32,000 nt of DNA from Candidatus Heimdallarchaeota archaeon B3_Heim. Lineage in GTDB: Archaea; Asgardarchaeota; Heimdallarchaeia; Hodarchaeales; Hodarchaeaceae. Under the pieces are notes generated by a model. That model was not told the DNA's origin, searched no databases, and saw only the letters and a program-made list of their open reading frames with translations. The DNA is taken from positions 1 through 32,000 of the forward strand of contig NJBF01000037.1 of the NCBI GenBank assembly GCA_003144275.1. Reading direction: 5' to 3'. Below are positions 1-22,598 of the stretch, piece by piece (positions within the stretch are counted from its first letter, which is position 1; the number at the start of each line of letters is the position of its first letter). A program made the position numbers and the translations under genes.

Positions 1-126
1 CCAGATCCCCAAGTAGTCCCAATGGAAAGCACTCCTTCTCTGGTTGCTCCCCTGCCGGATAGCGGATGTGTGACTCATCCTGTCCAGAACTAGTTTTTAA
101 CTAGTTGTCTGACAAATTTAGTCATG
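1..126 (+). mobile_element. Right-hand part of the ~360-bp CATG-flanked element (copy A), truncated by the window start
   Basis: Positions 10-126 align without gaps to 19381-19497 with 10 substitutions in 117 nt. Ends TTGTCTGACAAA-TTTAGT-CATG (CATG at 123-126). Confidence 0.92.
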
Positions 127-10500: not shown

Positions 10501-11922
10501 AAGACACCTCCTATCATAAATAGCTCGGGATATTCTGAAACGTTAACGAATCATACATTCACACGACTAGACTTTTGGGTAGATGCTATTGATACATTTG
10601 GATCTGTAGTTGGAGTGACACTTACAGTAAATTATTTCAATACTACATCATGGATAATTGTTGATGGGGAAATGGTCAACACAGGGAGTTATTATGCATA
10701 TTCTCTTTATTTGTGGTGTAATACGTCTTTTAATTATAGTATTCAAGTTTATGATGCAAAACCAAATATTATTGTAATAAATGATTCTAACTTAAGGACT
10801 TACTGGGGACCAGTAATTATCAAGTCAGGTATAAGACAAAATATAGATAATTCTCTGACGGTATGGGCTAATATTTCAGATTGGGGTTCAGGTATTTCTG
10901 AAGTTACTTTAGAATATGAATTTATACCTCAAGGTGGATCTGGGGGAAATGCTGCACATCTACAGGTTGAAACGATCTCAATGGAGTTTAATGGGAGTTT
11001 ATATATTTCTGAACTTATATTCTCTGAGGCAGGGACGTTAAGCTGGACTATTATCGCAAAGGATGAGCTAAACTCATTTACTGCAACTGAATCATCTCCC
11101 CAACCATTTTTTATTTCTCTACCCACCGAATCAGTGATTTGGGAGGATCTACTACCCGTTATCTTTGCCGTAGCAATTATTCCTTTGGTTATCGTTTTCA
11201 CTATTGCTAGTGTGAGAAGGAGACGATCTCGAAGAATTCAACAGAAAAAGGATATAGAAAGAGCATTAGCAAAGCGTTTTACTGATATTTTAAGTATGCG
11301 TTCAATAATTTGTCGAAATAAACATGGAATTCCTTTTTATACCACAAATTTTATGGCTGAAGACCAAGATTTAGATTTAACTGCTGGTCTTGCATCAGCT
11401 GTGTCTAGTCTTGTATCTGAAGTATCACAAAGAGCGATGAAAAAAGGTGAATTCGATCTTATAGAACGAGAAGGTTTTAGCATACTATCTCATCATGGGG
11501 AATACTCTACTATTAGTTTAGTTTCTGAAGGAAAATTAAGCCTATATATGAGAGACAGAATCTCCAAACTTCACAATGAACTGGAATCTCGTTTCACTCA
11601 AGAACAACTCGAGGATCCGATGTTTGGAGATCATCCTGAACTTATTCGAGGATTGGTATATAAATACTTGAATGTTGGTTTACTCAGTAAATTAACTATT
11701 GATTTTCAACGTTTCAAAGAGCTTGAGAAGGATTTCAGTGAAGATGAAAGAAAATTCATAACCTATCTTGCTGAAATACCACCGCTAGACGATGGTCAAA
11801 TTTCATTTTACGTAACGACTTTTACATCCTCCATTACTCGTCATGGAGCGTCCTTGGCATTAGCCTACACGCTGTTAGAAAAATGCTTCAAACTAAGAAT
11901 TATCTATCCTATCACATTTTGA
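7528..11922 (+). CDS. Large cell-surface protein: signal peptide, repeated Ig-like beta domains, one TM helix, cytoplasmic longin/roadblock-like domain
   Basis: Repeats opening D-x-x-[AP]-P-x-I (DNDPPII, DLNAPIV, DSVEPLI, DDNAIPKL, DIIAPQI, DFSAPKI, DKTPPII). TM LLPVIFAVAIIPLVIVFTIASV then RRRRSRR. Tail SIICRNKHGIPFY...DLTAGLASAVSSLVSEV. Confidence 0.8.
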   Translation: MNALLLSRIHKQARSMVFCLLIIFIIIPALNLNEYNDSNNHIFDFNSIPSLTDNNEDHYLEIELKNPFFSIQPFQQPRILFVVDNPISLNVDKDVRFFDFMNKSLNYNVVCHESNDSYSYENFDAIVISSSVGEESTVDSLSNVPIPIFTMQAGHNNEFQLGDDFSIKDSDKFYINDGDHYVSQNFDNKSFFTVYGAADPIGYIYDYTAVPIGAEINPIAVRVVKKESVYFQEDAVWLVLDKGDKDWNLTASPERRAFWGAYLGNSLTLSGWESWNRTLSWILYDDIPGNSTIKVEVLDLDNKTVSNAQVTLTDSGNHSVSWSQNTSSYGYTTFSNVPFGYYNITVEYEDSINTDLQFLEVAGERTYDIEPFLSYTVQIDEYSDNDPPIITDIQFNPLNSNFSASIYDVSNIDHVNLSLTVRDSSNGSLLRDTVYNMVSRNNLLYFNDSALQGLPLTGLSVLYNITATDVALNIEVSENKFFTLGDLNAPIVNSYNVTDNEDGSLVFYANITDTESLVQDVVLRINDTYENMYVNASGYWIFEKPAHFGLVLNYSIFSATDSVGNVNNDSINPNFGLITPQDSVEPLIYAVSDTLDTHEEGFVTFRATVEESNEFQSGINVSSVSVLLSIFNGTLWDNDTFYPMTALGVITYEFEYHFRYNDTVVYQIVAADLARNLNFGDEHNDTIDDNAIPKLSFNAQEFGNGVVEFNSTVVDWPYNATVVTLHFTQDYFGTWSNVSMTNITENLYIFQVSNFDFRLQDVWYYTTAIDQSSNLYEPTSDQYQKVELSDIIAPQIFFIIENSTSIDGQIFITSWANDPYGDTPNINNTFYINFTKQGVTSQYEMNYDSFYFYKFNHVFNYNDEINIEIWTTDSVGNIGKIDRTIIIGDFSAPKILNTGIFEYQNGTVTFWAEVIEFSTGSGLPAEKSSVKLEYVFISSFNVSMSWNGSENVYIYTVSGFVPGNAFTYRVSAFDNSNNSAVTFWNKENIEDKTPPIINSSGYSETLTNHTFTRLDFWVDAIDTFGSVVGVTLTVNYFNTTSWIIVDGEMVNTGSYYAYSLYLWCNTSFNYSIQVYDAKPNIIVINDSNLRTYWGPVIIKSGIRQNIDNSLTVWANISDWGSGISEVTLEYEFIPQGGSGGNAAHLQVETISMEFNGSLYISELIFSEAGTLSWTIIAKDELNSFTATESSPQPFFISLPTESVIWEDLLPVIFAVAIIPLVIVFTIASVRRRRSRRIQQKKDIERALAKRFTDILSMRSIICRNKHGIPFYTTNFMAEDQDLDLTAGLASAVSSLVSEVSQRAMKKGEFDLIEREGFSILSHHGEYSTISLVSEGKLSLYMRDRISKLHNELESRFTQEQLEDPMFGDHPELIRGLVYKYLNVGLLSKLTIDFQRFKELEKDFSEDERKFITYLAEIPPLDDGQISFYVTTFTSSITRHGASLALAYTLLEKCFKLRIIYPITF

Positions 11923-18954: not shown

Positions 18955-19626
18955 TTATTTCAGTGAATTTTTTCTTGCTTTTATGAGATACCAAAATTGA
19001 TTGGTAATTACTATCTCTGGAGTAAATCCCACTTTGGCTAATAACGTTGAAACTACGTCTGCTGTCCGATCGTTAGTAACACGGCGTTTACCGTAGGCTG
19101 TTTCAATAGCTTTACCGCTAGGTGTTATAACATGATCATTTTTGTCCGATAATTCCATAGTGTTCATATTCGCTGACCTCTCTCTCTTTCTCTTACAAAC
19201 TTAAAAGGCGTCCCGCCCGTACTTCATCAACGCCGAGGTGATGACAAAAAAATTTACTTAGCTCCTAGGTCATATTCCCTTGTAACTTCGTTAGACGAGT
19301 TACCCGTCAAAGGCAAGAGAAGAATGATCCAGACTGGTCGAAAAGTATTGGTGTTTGGGATGTCGCCAGAAGATCTGATGCAAGTAGTCCCAATGGAAAG
19401 CAGTAATTCTCTTGTTGCTAACCTGCCGGATAGTGGATGTGTGACTCATCCTGTCCAGAACTATTTTTCAAATAGTTGTCTGACAAATTTAGTCATGGGG
19501 TTTCGCTTCATCAATTTCAGATTGGAGTTTATCGATAGCAGTTGCTTTTTTTTTCCCAATTTGGGCAATTATCCCCTCACCCCCCCCCAACATCCAGTAT
19601 AGATCCACTAGGGATTTCTTGAACAT
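18955..19626 (-). pseudogene. Small hypothetical gene (up to ~102 aa) split by element copy B
   Basis: Removing 19135-19497 joins ...EIDEAKPH to VITPSGKAIETAYG... in frame (CCC CAT GTT ATA). With the element present the frame stops at CAT GAC TAA. Start uncertain: ATG 19626, ATG 19593, or ATA/ATT after GGTGAG. Confidence 0.7.
19131..19497 (+). mobile_element. Complete 367-bp non-autonomous element (copy B, CATG to CATG)
   Basis: CATG at 19131-19134 and 19494-19497. Sub-terminal inverted repeats TTTGTCCGATAA (19141-19152) and TTGTCTGACAAA (19476-19487), each 6 bp inside CATG. About 95% identical to the reverse complement of 22165-22527. No transposase ORF. Confidence 0.93.
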
Positions 19627-19827
19627 TAATAGTTTGTCTAGGGTACTGAAAAAATTCTTCAAGATTACTTACGATCTTCATAGGAATCAAATAACATTTT
19701 TTCTATGCTATTAATTATTGGTGCGCATCTCAGACCAAAAAATCATGGACGAACGATTTCCATTATTAGACTCTATGTTATTAAAAAAGAAAAAAGAGGA
19801 GAAAATATCAAGTGGAGCCCAAAAAAT

Positions 19828-20031
19828 TTATTTTTCGGCTGCTAATTTGACATCATTCTCTTTTACGGTTTTTCGTCCATTGTGACGTGCAATTTCAACT
19901 GAATATTTGGCTAAGTTCATACCATAGTCAGTTAAGATCTCATTCAAGCGGTTAATTGCGCCAGCAGATACTCTAAAAGCGCCTGCGGTTCGAATGAGTT
20001 TTTCTACACGTGCTCGTGCAAATCCAGTCAT
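19828..20031 (-). CDS. Archaeal histone (HMf-like)
   Basis: FARARVEKLIRTAGAFRVSAGA...AKYSVEIARHNGRKTVKENDVKLA histone fold. ATG at 20031 follows GGTGA; the track uses GTG at 20040. Confidence 0.95.
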   Translation of the reverse strand: MTGFARARVEKLIRTAGAFRVSAGAINRLNEILTDYGMNLAKYSVEIARHNGRKTVKENDVKLAAEK

Positions 20032-20062
20032 ATTTTTCACCTTTTCTCAATATTAAGTTGTT

Positions 20063-20084
20063 CTGAGTCATTTAATAGACTCAG
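20063..20084. promoter_or_regulatory. 7-8-7 inverted repeat upstream of the histone gene
   Basis: CTGAGTC-ATTTAATA-GACTCAG lies between a TATA-like TTATAAATATAT (minus strand, about 20103-20114) and the histone start. Confidence 0.4.
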
Positions 20085-20376
20085 TGGTTACGAAAATCCT
20101 CTATATATTTATAAGTTTTATTCTACAACAATGCACGTTCTAGATATCTCGATGTTACTTTTTGCACTCGGATTGATTTAGCTAGCTATGGAAAATACTT
20201 TTTCACGATCTTCAAGCTGAACTAGATAATATATTATGTATTCACTGAGGATAGATACTCTATTCATAAATGATTTGAAAAAGACAATAATTTTACCTGA
20301 TGCTTCTATCAGCCAAGGGAAATAGATCTGAAAATATAAACTCGCTATCTAGAAAAAAAGGGGGAAGTGAGAGTTT

Positions 20377-22598
20377 TTATACTCTCTTTCTTCTCGAGAG
20401 AATAGGAACTGAGATAATGACTCCCATGATGCTGATAAACTCCCATCCAGGTGAGAGACTTGGAATGGTGTTATTATCAGTTGTCTCACCAGTGAATGAC
20501 TCCATAAGCTCAAATTTGAAGATTGATATTTCAGAGCCATTAGTAGAAATGGAACCAGATATTAATTCAAGCTTTTCAAGTACACCAGTTTGTCTATTCC
20601 ACTGAAATTCGAGAACTCCGTCATCAGAAGGTTGAGTTTCATTATAATTCCATGTTAGTCGATAATAATCACTTTCTTCAATTAAATAAGTATTATCGAA
20701 CATTTTGAAGTTGGATAGATTTCCATAAATTGGGAGAAAAAGGAAGTTATTAATTCCGTTTCCTAGATAATCATCTGTATTTTTATGTATTTCAACTTCT
20801 ATACCCCATTCAACAAATTCAAACATTATCAGTTTGAGTTGATCTCCCTGAGCTAAAGATAGCGGGATATTTTCTTCTGTGTTTTTATTACGAAACCATT
20901 CTGTTAAATCAACTTCAGCTGATGCACCACTATATTCAGTCAAACTATAGATGAAAGTGTCACCAACTGAAATTGAAAAGTCCTCTTGAGTAAAGCTATC
21001 ATCAGGTTTTTCATCGATTTTTGGTGGATAAAATCCCTTTCTAATCCAAATATTATCCCAAAAAACTAAGGTTTCAGTGTTAATTTCTTGGTTATCAAAA
21101 CCAAAGCCAATATTTCCACATTTAAAGACGTTAAAATCATCATTTGTGAAAATTATATAGGATTCTAGCTCTTCTTCTTGAAGAAATACCTGAGTTATTT
21201 GTTTGTCACTTTCTACAGCAACCGCTATGATTAAACGCCCCCATGTTAGTTGTGATTCCATTGGCATGGAATAAAAAGTAGATTTTTCGCCTACCTCATT
21301 TTGAGCTCCAAACTCAAGAACATTTCTCTGATAGCTATAGCGAACATACTGAACGTCTGCACCACTGTTGAATCGCCATCCAAGTAACAATATATCTCCA
21401 TTTGCAATGTGAATATCATAATCAACCTCAATGGTGTAACTGTACAAGTCTTCATAAGTTTCCAAACCAGATGTTGTTAACCAACCACTTTCTGAAGAAA
21501 CATTATTGAAATAATATCCACGCAACCATTCATTCTCAATATCCCAATTTCCTTCTGGTCCTCCATACCAGACATAAGGATCAAGATTATAGCTGGAAAA
21601 GTCATCATAGTAAATAGTTTCATCAGTTGGGTGGTCTGGAGGCGTGTGATATCCTGTATATACACTAATATTGTCAAATCGTGCAGAAGAGTTATAATAT
21701 AACCCAAAACCGATATCCTCTAAATTAGGAACATTCATCATCATACTTGAGATAACTGGTTCTCCATTTACCCAGAGATCAAGTTGTCCACCAGCTACAG
21801 CCATATGTACAACGGCCCATTTGTCCGTTGGAAATTGATAGTCAAAATCATATAAACTTCCATAAGAATCAATATAGTGAGAGTATCCCGATGTTGATCC
21901 TAATTCCATTACTGCATATCCAGAGTAATAGTTGAAAATGAAATGAAACTGTTCTTCTCCATACCCTGACAACAAATTTACATCAAAGATTACTGTATAT
22001 TCACTCATATTGAAGATCGTATCGTCTAATACTATATCATCCCACATTTCATTTGTACTAATGCCATTAAGACTATTATCAAGAAAATCACATGCACCGT
22101 TCATAACAGTCCAGTATCCATTATCTACTTCAAAATCTTGGAAATATACAAGATCATCAGGAGCCATGACTAAATTTGTCAGACAACTATTTGAAAAATA
22201 GTTCTGGACAGGATGAGTCACACATCCACTATCCGGCAGGTTAGCAACAAGAGAATCATTGCTTTCCATTGGGATTACTTGCATCAGATCTTCTGGCGAC
22301 ATCCCAAACACCAATACTTTTCGACCAGTCTGGGTCATTCTTCTCTTGCCTTTGACGGGTAACTCGTCTAACGAAGTTACAAGGGAATATGACCTAAAAG
22401 CTAAGTAAATTTTTTTGTCATCACCTCGGCGTTGATGAAGTACGGGCGGGACACCTTTTAAGTTTGTAAGGGAGAGAGAGGTCAGCGAATATGAGAAATA
22501 TGAAATTGTCGGACAAAAATGATCATGGCTTGAGGAATAGTTGTTATTAACATCGGTAAAAAGAGAAGGATTAAAAGCATTTTTTTCTGATTTTTCAT
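20377..22598 (-). pseudogene. Secreted surface glycoprotein (two lectin/LamG-like domains plus PGW-TM-basic CTERM anchor), interrupted by element copy C after the signal peptide
   Basis: ATG 22598 (GGAGG upstream) encodes MKNQKKMLLILLFLPMLITTIPQA. Removing the element plus one CATG gives ...PQA-MAPDDLVYFQDF..., 620 aa in total. C-terminus SPGWEFISIMGVIISVPILSRRKRV. Confidence 0.85.
22165..22527 (-). mobile_element. Complete 363-bp non-autonomous element (copy C, CATG to CATG)
   Basis: CATG at 22165-22168 and 22524-22527. Reverse complement of copy B with about 13 substitutions and a 4-bp indel in a CT-rich tract. Both sub-terminal TTGTC-N-GACAA palindromes are perfect. Confidence 0.93.

Follow-up and report, generated by a model that had tools for sequence, protein, structure and literature searches.

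What is a gene-less repeat of about 365 nt, dense in potential hairpins, doing in the genome of an Asgard archaeon? The window analysed here, meaning the whole 32,000-nt stretch from position 1 to 32,000, lies on contig NJBF01000037.1 (C86) of Candidatus Heimdallarchaeota archaeon B3_Heim, whose assembly comprises 3.95 Mb in 103 contigs with 36% G+C and is 94% complete. It contains three copies of the repeat. An earlier note, made from the letters alone, had read the interior of copy B as RNA or single-stranded DNA of one polarity, its candidates being a guide or scaffold RNA for a nuclease or recombinase supplied in trans and a new class of ribozyme. Our analysis indicates that the element probably carries an orphan omega-RNA and relies on TnpB supplied in trans.

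19131-19497, plus strand: copy B, a non-autonomous element of ~365 nt without a tnpB gene, CATG at each end
22165-22527, minus strand: copy C, 95% identical to copy B and in the opposite orientation
10-126, plus strand: copy A, partial, the right end of a full tnpB element broken at the contig start

We assign copy A to a tnpB element broken by the assembly because tnpB-type sequence (...CCCCAAGTAGTCCC) precedes it and because it lies at the contig start. The same sequence stands at the start of contig C41.

Relation to a tnpB-only insertion sequence

The source genome carries 22 full-length copies, 76-96% identical to copy B, together with two weaker copies and fragments, and full-length copies also occur in five other genomes of the same genus. 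These six genomes yielded 44 distinct full-length sequences of 355-368 nt, with a mean pairwise identity of 72% (minimum 54%, maximum 97%). Their open reading frames (ORFs) are short and are not conserved across copies. The element has the properties of a miniature inverted-repeat transposable element (MITE), being smaller than about 600 bp, multicopy and transposase-free, with terminal inverted repeats and a flanking repeat.

Over its right 116-118 nt, the element shows homology to the 3' (right) ends of ~1.42-kb tnpB-only elements of the source genome, which are 71-93% identical to one another and encode one protein of ~420 aa each. In this protein the Pfam domains OrfB_IS605 and Cas12f1-like_TNB are present, and it has matches among the solved TnpB and Cas12f chains; its match to ISDra2 TnpB (E about 1e-9) indicates a distant relation. 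A protein search returned several hundred tnpB relatives, and the nearest ones are in records named Candidatus Hodarchaeales, Hodarchaeota or Heimdallarchaeota. The source genome itself has five cognate tnpB ORFs that are intact, besides fragments. The GIDLG, NEAYTSQ, CxxC...CxxC and NADYNAA motifs are unbroken in its tnpB copies, several of which combine an unbroken ORF with the RuvC D/E/D and zinc-finger motifs. In all, the TnpB zinc-ribbon domain is matched 19 times in this genome, by members of at least two families, and one family only has the ends of the mini-element.

Mini-element and parent are colinear through the left end (CATGATCAWWTTTGTCYGACAA), a TTAAAA/TTATAA box, an internal block that we call module A, and the 3' block. 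Positions ~148-200 of the MITE match the interior of tnpB, and the terminal ~116-128 nt of the parent are retained from CAAGTAGTCCC through the final CATG; about 60 nt, the invariant GAGGTGATGA included, have no counterpart in the parent. Judging from its sequence, the element is an internal-deletion derivative of a 1.42-kb tnpB-only insertion sequence of a Hodarchaeales (Asgard) archaeon. In copy B the sense strand of tnpB is plus, and the last 116-118 nt of the element occupy the normal place of an omega-RNA, on the sense strand across the tnpB 3' end and the right end of the transposon.

The earlier note had raised co-occurrence with TnpB genes, among others, and this is what we observed. 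At a cut-off of E <= 1e-100, 7 of the genus's 22 genomes encode cognate tnpB. Those seven and one 74%-complete metagenome-assembled genome carry the element or its 3' module, and the 14 remaining genomes lack it. Cognate tnpB genes that are catalytically intact accompany the element in 6 of the 7 genomes bearing it, and the 14 genomes without it have none. These counts are not independent, because the genomes are related. As in the case of standalone omega-RNAs and elements resembling palindrome-associated transposable elements (PATEs), the cognate TnpB is encoded in the same genome.

Two constrained and covarying modules

Ten distinct tnpB genes (66-95% aa identity) were aligned by codon, and the rate of difference among codon pairs for the same amino acid was calculated in 9-codon windows. 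Around a gene-wide mean of 0.44, codons ~214-228 stood out with a rate of only 0.05-0.08 and codons ~391-426 with 0.02-0.2, and everywhere outside these two troughs it was at least 0.22. The two blocks of tnpB origin kept by the mini-element coincide exactly with the troughs. The 3' trough starts at CAAGTAGTCCC and delimits a scaffold of ~116-128 nt, which would be a typical size for a TnpB omega-RNA scaffold; that of ISDra2 measures 116 nt (PMC10097598). The internal trough shows that module A, far from being a mere leftover in the MITE, also functions at the nucleic-acid level within the full-length transposon. This second region of non-coding constraint within tnpB is unaccounted for by current omega-RNA models.

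Ahead of the 3' block, copy B has the following features.

19131-19152, plus strand: left end, CATG followed by the sub-terminal palindrome TTGTCYGACAA, from end alignments of MITE and tnpB elements and a genome-wide end scan
19201-19206, plus strand: TATA-like box TTAAAA, conserved across copies, at the place of the parental TTATAA, ~28 nt before the tnpB start codon
19235-19244, plus strand: GAGGTGATGA box, a run of invariant alignment columns, in all mini-elements and absent from tnpB elements
19264-19332, plus strand: module A, with tnpB-interior homology, in which helix P1 encloses hairpin P2 and an invariant CCCGUCAAAGG
19268-19273/19324-19329 and 19275-19281/19315-19321, plus strand: helix P1, defined by covariation
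19282-19290/19296-19303, plus strand: hairpin P2, conserved
19333-19381, plus strand: variable linker, holding the 5' arm (19355-19361) of the UUGGGAU/GUCCCAA stem, whose 3' arm (19387-19393) lies in the 3' module

The GAGGTGATGA box resembles a strong Shine-Dalgarno sequence or a box C (RUGAUGA), and no conserved ORF lies behind it.

Module A is a 45-70-nt block homologous to tnpB codons ~214-228 (LVTTSDGLLVKG, just past the RuvC-I aspartate). In an unfitted MAFFT alignment of 41 MITE and 8 tnpB segments, 86% of the cells in its helices were paired, compared with 31-49% when the partners were slid, and the covariation score was 0.256, compared with 0.167 in shuffles and at most 0.132 in slid controls. 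P1, a covarying helix that the earlier note had not included, changes on both sides in 10 of its 13 pairs. P2, which the note had proposed, is conserved; its deviations are mostly one-sided and of wobble type, and informative variation is almost nil. On the sense strand, the tnpB copies can form P1 and a GACGGN-UUA-CUCGUC hairpin. In the MITEs, two fixed changes disrupt this hairpin and complete a GUAACU..AGUUAC hairpin. Inspection of the invariant segments by eye gave no convincing pairing between module A and the 3' module.

The 3' block is organised as follows.

19382-19497, plus strand: 3' module, the putative omega-RNA scaffold, common to tnpB 3' ends
from 19381 (first C), plus strand: 5' segment of the 3' module, (C)AAGUAGUCCC
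19395-19396/19422-19423 and 19399-19406/19412-19419, plus strand: H5
19428-19432/19452-19456 and 19435-19439/19447-19451, plus strand: H6, GGAUAG..GGAUG/CAUCCUGUCC
19459-19466/19470-19477, plus strand: H7
after H7, plus strand: tail of the 3' module, UUGUCUGACAAAUUUAGUCAUG
19440-19446 with 19491-19497, plus strand: candidate pseudoknot between the H6 loop (UGUGACU) and the last seven bases (AGUCAUG)

RNAalifold, applied to the whole element, returned implausible long-range pairs, and the covariance model derived from it (R1) missed H6 and H7. It was therefore replaced by a model with a hand-set nested structure (R2), which matched 86 loci. Pairs in H5, H6 and H7 were counted over 80 distinct sequences, MITE copies and tnpB 3' ends, aligned to R2; an alignment fitted to its model favours the structure, and the compensatory changes are also plain in unfitted alignments. 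In the R2 alignment 90.3% of cells were paired, versus 34-46% with the 3' partners slid. The covariation score was 0.337, versus 0.128 in shuffles, none of 500 of which scored as high, and no more than 0.114 when slid. The covarying hairpins are H5 and H7, with changes on both sides at all ten pairs of H5 and at 6 of the 8 pairs of H7. The H7 arms of copy A also differ from those of copy B by a compensatory change. H6 (GGAUA/UGUCC and GGAUG/CAUCC) was 97% paired and essentially invariant, including one U.G, and carried next to no informative variation. Both H6 and P2 are near-invariant in MITEs of 54-97% overall identity, which are free of coding constraint. The two sides of the candidate pseudoknot are also nearly invariant; counted across 18 distinct haplotypes, 116 of 126 cells form standard pairs.

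All the stems listed in the earlier note are present in copy B at the coordinates it gave, and only half of them hold across the ~44 full-length copies. The hairpins at 19282-19303, 19399-19419, GGAUAG..GGAUG/CAUCCUGUCC and 19459-19477 hold, and covariation was seen for H5, H7 and P1 in their respective alignments. The UUGGGAU/GUCCCAA stem was found in three of four subfamilies and fails in the fourth, where the 3' strand GUCCCUCGAA matches UUCGAGG about nine bases farther upstream. A possible alternative pairing of the 19387-19395 strand, UAUUGG/CCAAUG, fits subfamilies 1 and 4 and does not fit 2 and 3. Both pseudoknots proposed in the note fail, as judged from the family-wide pairing counts of their arms. 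For the first, GGCGU/ACGCC was paired in 57% of cells, in the B subfamily only, and UCAUCA/UGAUGA in 79%, with a central U.U and no covariation, compared with 64-68% when slid by three; for the second, UCGCCAG/CUGG(U)CGA was paired in 64%, compared with up to 52% when slid. A transcription start near 19230 would, moreover, place the 5' arms of the first outside the RNA.

The density of stems could suggest a new self-cleaving or self-splicing ribozyme, or a bridge/seek RNA of the IS110 type, but the family-wide failure of both pseudoknots speaks against such a product. Rfam 15 gave no match in the whole window at gathering thresholds, and permissive thresholds over 19050-19600 gave chance-level hits only (E of at least 0.14). 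IS110 bridge/seek RNAs are encoded beside a DEDD recombinase gene, whereas the parent of this element encodes TnpB and all its longer relatives carry TnpB only. We consider this explanation scarcely credible. The ribozyme suggested in the earlier note thus has no basis, and of its two guide-RNA proposals the evidence (tnpB homology, sense strand and co-occurrence) points to the RNA of a nuclease acting in trans, not to a recombinase or IS110 type.

It could also be argued that the element is a neutral relic, with recent amplification accounting for the conservation and chance for the stems. Five B-type copies are indeed 95-97% identical, and the single-sequence z-score is not significant. However, invariant blocks and compensatory changes are kept down to 54% pairwise identity, and the same two blocks depress synonymous change in tnpB, which together with the covariation contradicts this view and makes it very improbable.

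Direction of the putative RNA and its proposed use in trans

Our model suggests that transcription of the element would follow the tnpB sense strand (plus in copy B), begin at about 19230, cross the scaffold and run on into the flank. A distance of ~28 nt is the spacing of an archaeal TATA box ahead of a leaderless mRNA, and the TTAAAA box may therefore act as a promoter with a start near 19230. The product would be an orphan omega-RNA, with the 16-20 nt after 19497 as its guide. TnpB produced by full-length elements elsewhere in the genome would load this RNA in trans and cut vacant CATG sites matching the guide, and recombinational repair would then reinstate the mini-element. From the way TnpB omega-RNAs are built (PMC10097598, PMC10691335), the guide in copy B can be predicted.

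19498-19517, plus strand: predicted guide segment, flank read through from the scaffold

The predicted target of this guide would be preceded by NNNNCATG.

The plus polarity is suggested mainly by homology to the tnpB sense strand, and the TATA-like box points in the same direction. G-U cells, which pair on the plus strand, outnumber A-C cells by 63:18 in H5, 41:7 in H7 and 14:4 in P2, which favours plus. The earlier note had argued for polarity from four differences between copies B and C (19209 C/T, 19387 G/A, 19403 G/A and 19405 A/G). These are real and leave the stems paired on the plus strand, as do two more differences, at 19328 and 19265, which are also wobble-compatible there; but two of the four belong to stems without family-wide support, and compatibility with this strand only is not a family-wide property.

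Several observations weigh against the reading as a sense-strand omega-RNA. In H6 the variant haplotypes show no preference (8:8), and in P1 the ratio is 54:39, with 22 of the A.C cells contributed by one persistent C.A, which would be a G-U on the opposite strand. The plus strand of copy B (19233-19497) folds at -65.2 kcal/mol, no better than dinucleotide shuffles (z -0.95), and the minus strand folds better (z -2.34). Averaged over the 44 copies, z is -1.31 on plus and -1.55 on minus, giving plus no advantage, and the antisense strand of module A folds better in MITE subfamilies 1-2. Since these single-sequence z-scores do not separate the strands, they were dropped as evidence of polarity. 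Module A has no counterpart in described omega-RNAs. H7 adjoins the end of the element and could equally be a recognition hairpin for a transposase. Finally, the right end terminates in CATG as the left one does, so how TnpB would spare occupied sites is problematic; the sole hint is that a T rarely precedes the left CATG (2 of 44 copies).

Part of this evidence would suit an antisense product (minus in copy B), such as a regulator of tnpB, or read-in from neighbouring genes. In the subfamily of copy B, z ranges from -2.3 to -4.1 on minus versus -0.3 to -1.7 on plus, module A of copy B reaches -23.0 kcal/mol (z -3.65) on minus and -14.8 on plus, and the persistent C.A of P1 fits the minus strand. 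Yet only subfamilies 1-2 show the advantage of minus; for module A, subfamily 4 and all eight tnpB copies give the better fold on the sense strand. In addition, G-U exceeds A-C on plus in H5, H7 and P2, the invariant U.G of H6 would be an A.C mismatch on minus, and the TATA-like box is oriented the other way. An antisense product is accordingly improbable.

The kind of element that we propose is already known, as trans-acting standalone omega-RNAs and omega-RNA-coding PATEs have been described. Standalone omega-RNAs act in trans according to the summary of Altae-Tran et al. (2021) given in PMC10691335, and PATEs "often encode omega-RNAs", for which the action of TnpB is necessarily in trans (Meers et al. 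2023, bioRxiv 10.1101/2023.03.14.532601). Like these, the present element is gene-less, shares its ends with tnpB elements of the same genome, includes the tnpB 3'/right-end region, would need TnpB and a transposase in trans and has more copies than tnpB itself. Unlike them, it resides in an Asgard host in whose genome no Y1 TnpA was found, has symmetric ends with CATG on both sides, and adds a promoter-like box and a second covarying module from the tnpB ORF; its function in trans is putative.

The putative scaffold resembles the ISDra2 omega-RNA (PMC10097598) in size, in its place on the sense strand at the tnpB 3'/right end, in having several stems and in guide-adjacent bases able to pair upstream as a (here candidate) pseudoknot. 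It differs in that sequence similarity is undetectable, the TnpB protein is distant, and the candidate partner is a hairpin loop at -57 to -51 instead of the scaffold 5' end. As in the haloarchaeal PATEs and IS1341-type elements (Dyall-Smith et al. 2011, PMC3119063), we are dealing with archaeal non-coding internal-deletion derivatives of tnpB-only elements that insert beside a short target oligonucleotide and have the same near-terminal palindrome at both ends. PATEs are defined by the lack of inverted terminal repeats; here, in contrast, the terminal 22 nt read as an inverted repeat, and the interior is strongly conserved and covarying. With the MITEs of DDE transposons, the element shares small size, high copy number, lack of a transposase, terminal inverted repeats and the same tetranucleotide at both flanks, but its parent encodes TnpB, its interior is under selection and its CATG may be an unduplicated target.

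A more elaborate version of the omega-RNA model would divide the RNA in two: a 3' scaffold, and a second structured RNA module within the RuvC-I coding region of tnpB, needed for the function or control of TnpB. The mini-element would unite both modules behind a promoter of its own, as a self-expressing, guide-only parasite of TnpB homing, and would also drive or displace host genes whose ATG lies inside the CATG target. We put this combined proposal forward tentatively and regard it as rather doubtful. If module A is indeed part or regulator of the ribonucleoprotein, the way omega-RNAs are delimited in genome mining would change.

Gene-less, guide-RNA-only elements illustrate that RNA-guided homing can be exploited in trans, and anatomically clear examples are few. 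The ~44 diverged scaffold variants and a further ~24 linked to tnpB amount to a natural mutational map of one omega-RNA. In the literature searched, no guide-RNA-only TnpB element has been described from Asgard archaea. These archaea are the closest prokaryotic relatives of eukaryotes, whose TnpB descendants, the Fanzors, ride inverted-repeat transposons.

Ends, insertion sites and neighbouring genes

The palindrome TTGTCNGACAA lies at both ends of the element, seven to eleven bases from the terminal CATG, and we therefore read the outer 22 nt as an inverted repeat; the two 22-nt ends agree at 16-19 of 22 positions. The family has the end sequence CATGAYCAWWTTTGTCYGACAA, and both the end alignments and the genome-wide scan show these ends to be common to the mini-element and the tnpB elements of the source genome. 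In genome G007 the site orthologous to copy C has no insertion; its sequence, ...GGAGC CATG GCTTG..., contains one CATG only, which demonstrates precise insertion at CATG. The junctions are consistent with a 4-bp duplication and equally with insertion 3' of CATG by an element that ends in CATG.

Elements of the IS200/IS605 group insert 3' of a tetra- or pentanucleotide without duplication, by means of a Y1 TnpA, and have asymmetric ends with sub-terminal hairpins. The ends seen here are symmetric, unlike theirs, and the 94%-complete source assembly has no match to the Y1 transposase (PF01797). The tnpB-associated IS607 family uses a serine recombinase with an N-terminal MerR-like domain. No IS607-type TnpA was found in the source genome, whose sole resolvase-domain gene encodes a 183-aa Hin-like invertase away from tnpB. 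The end scan recovered no longer element with these ends and a gene other than tnpB, and solo ends adjoin ordinary genes. Symmetric, CATG-bounded ends with no transposase found bear on how tnpB-only elements move. A Y1 TnpA, a DDE enzyme and Asgard Cas1 (PMC10691335) are among the candidates for the mobilising enzyme.

The ends also bring in a further explanation, namely that the interior consists of cis signals for a transposase at the level of double- or single-stranded DNA, with no functional RNA. H7 and the TTGTCNGACAA palindrome do lie at the very end, the hairpins are possible on both strands with fold energies that do not separate them, and end hairpins of the IS200/IS605 type act on single-stranded DNA (PMC3119063; bioRxiv 10.1101/2023.03.14.532601). 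Against this, the best-conserved blocks, module A and H6, lie 40-230 nt from the nearest end, and versions of 33 nt (terminal-only) and 146 nt occur, indicating that ends alone can persist. The 3' block falls just where TnpB elements encode their omega-RNAs, and P1 and H5 show helical covariation, for which a protein site on duplex DNA would have no need. Cis signals alone are thus an unlikely account, and we prefer the omega-RNA model.

The 33-nt versions, CATGATCAAATTTGTCTGACAATTTTAGTCATG, consist of left and right ends fused at the common palindrome; terminal-only versions of 52 bp are found among the PATEs of Haloquadratum (PMC3119063). In the source genome they lie at:

L094:2800-2832 (C8:64499-64531), terminal-only version
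C35:1462-1494, terminal-only version
C50:11147-11179, terminal-only version

The flanks of the 44 copies are asymmetric. A T stands before the right-end CATG and, as given above, seldom before the left one; positions -3 and -2 of the left flank are A/T-rich, and the base after the right CATG is mostly a purine. This suggests an oriented constraint, perhaps resembling a transposon-associated motif.

Copy C sits exactly at the start codon (22165-22168) of a gene (ORF 20377-22338, minus strand) whose 596-aa product is acidic, matches no Pfam family and has a membrane anchor at its C terminus. At the empty site of G007 the sequence is CC ATG GCT CCT..., so the native ATG lies within the CATG target, and 57 residues of the 653-aa ORF listed for the window are contributed by copy C. 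The sense strand of copy C reads out into the gene, which its promoter-like box could drive.

Copy B interrupts a small minus-strand gene (18955-19130 and 19498-19662). Compared with the ortholog in genome G004, 228 bases are missing beside the left end of copy B (L101:1661-1889), which implies a flanking deletion after or together with the insertion. The idea that removal of copy B restores one uninterrupted ORF was rejected, because the G004 ortholog is 228 bases longer at this place; continuity of frame across copy B is therefore coincidental or arose after the deletion. Also rejected, in view of the dispersed copies and the empty sites, was the possibility that the B/C repeat is a 5' leader of paralogous genes, with ORFs starting at the outer ends.

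Outside the window, at C2:5532-7731 (L104), the gene for the Hin-like serine invertase is convergent with a 416-aa reverse-transcriptase-like ORF, and the locus may be a retron or a defence-type reverse-transcriptase locus.

With their right ends facing each other, copies B and C form an inverted pair that spans 19131-22527 and is arranged like a composite transposon; the 2.67 kb enclosed include an archaeal histone-fold gene (19828-20040). A second inverted pair, of identical copies 8.4 kb apart, lies on contig C67 of the source genome (3690-4051 and 12462-12823), together with an extra right-end fragment at 11353-11436.

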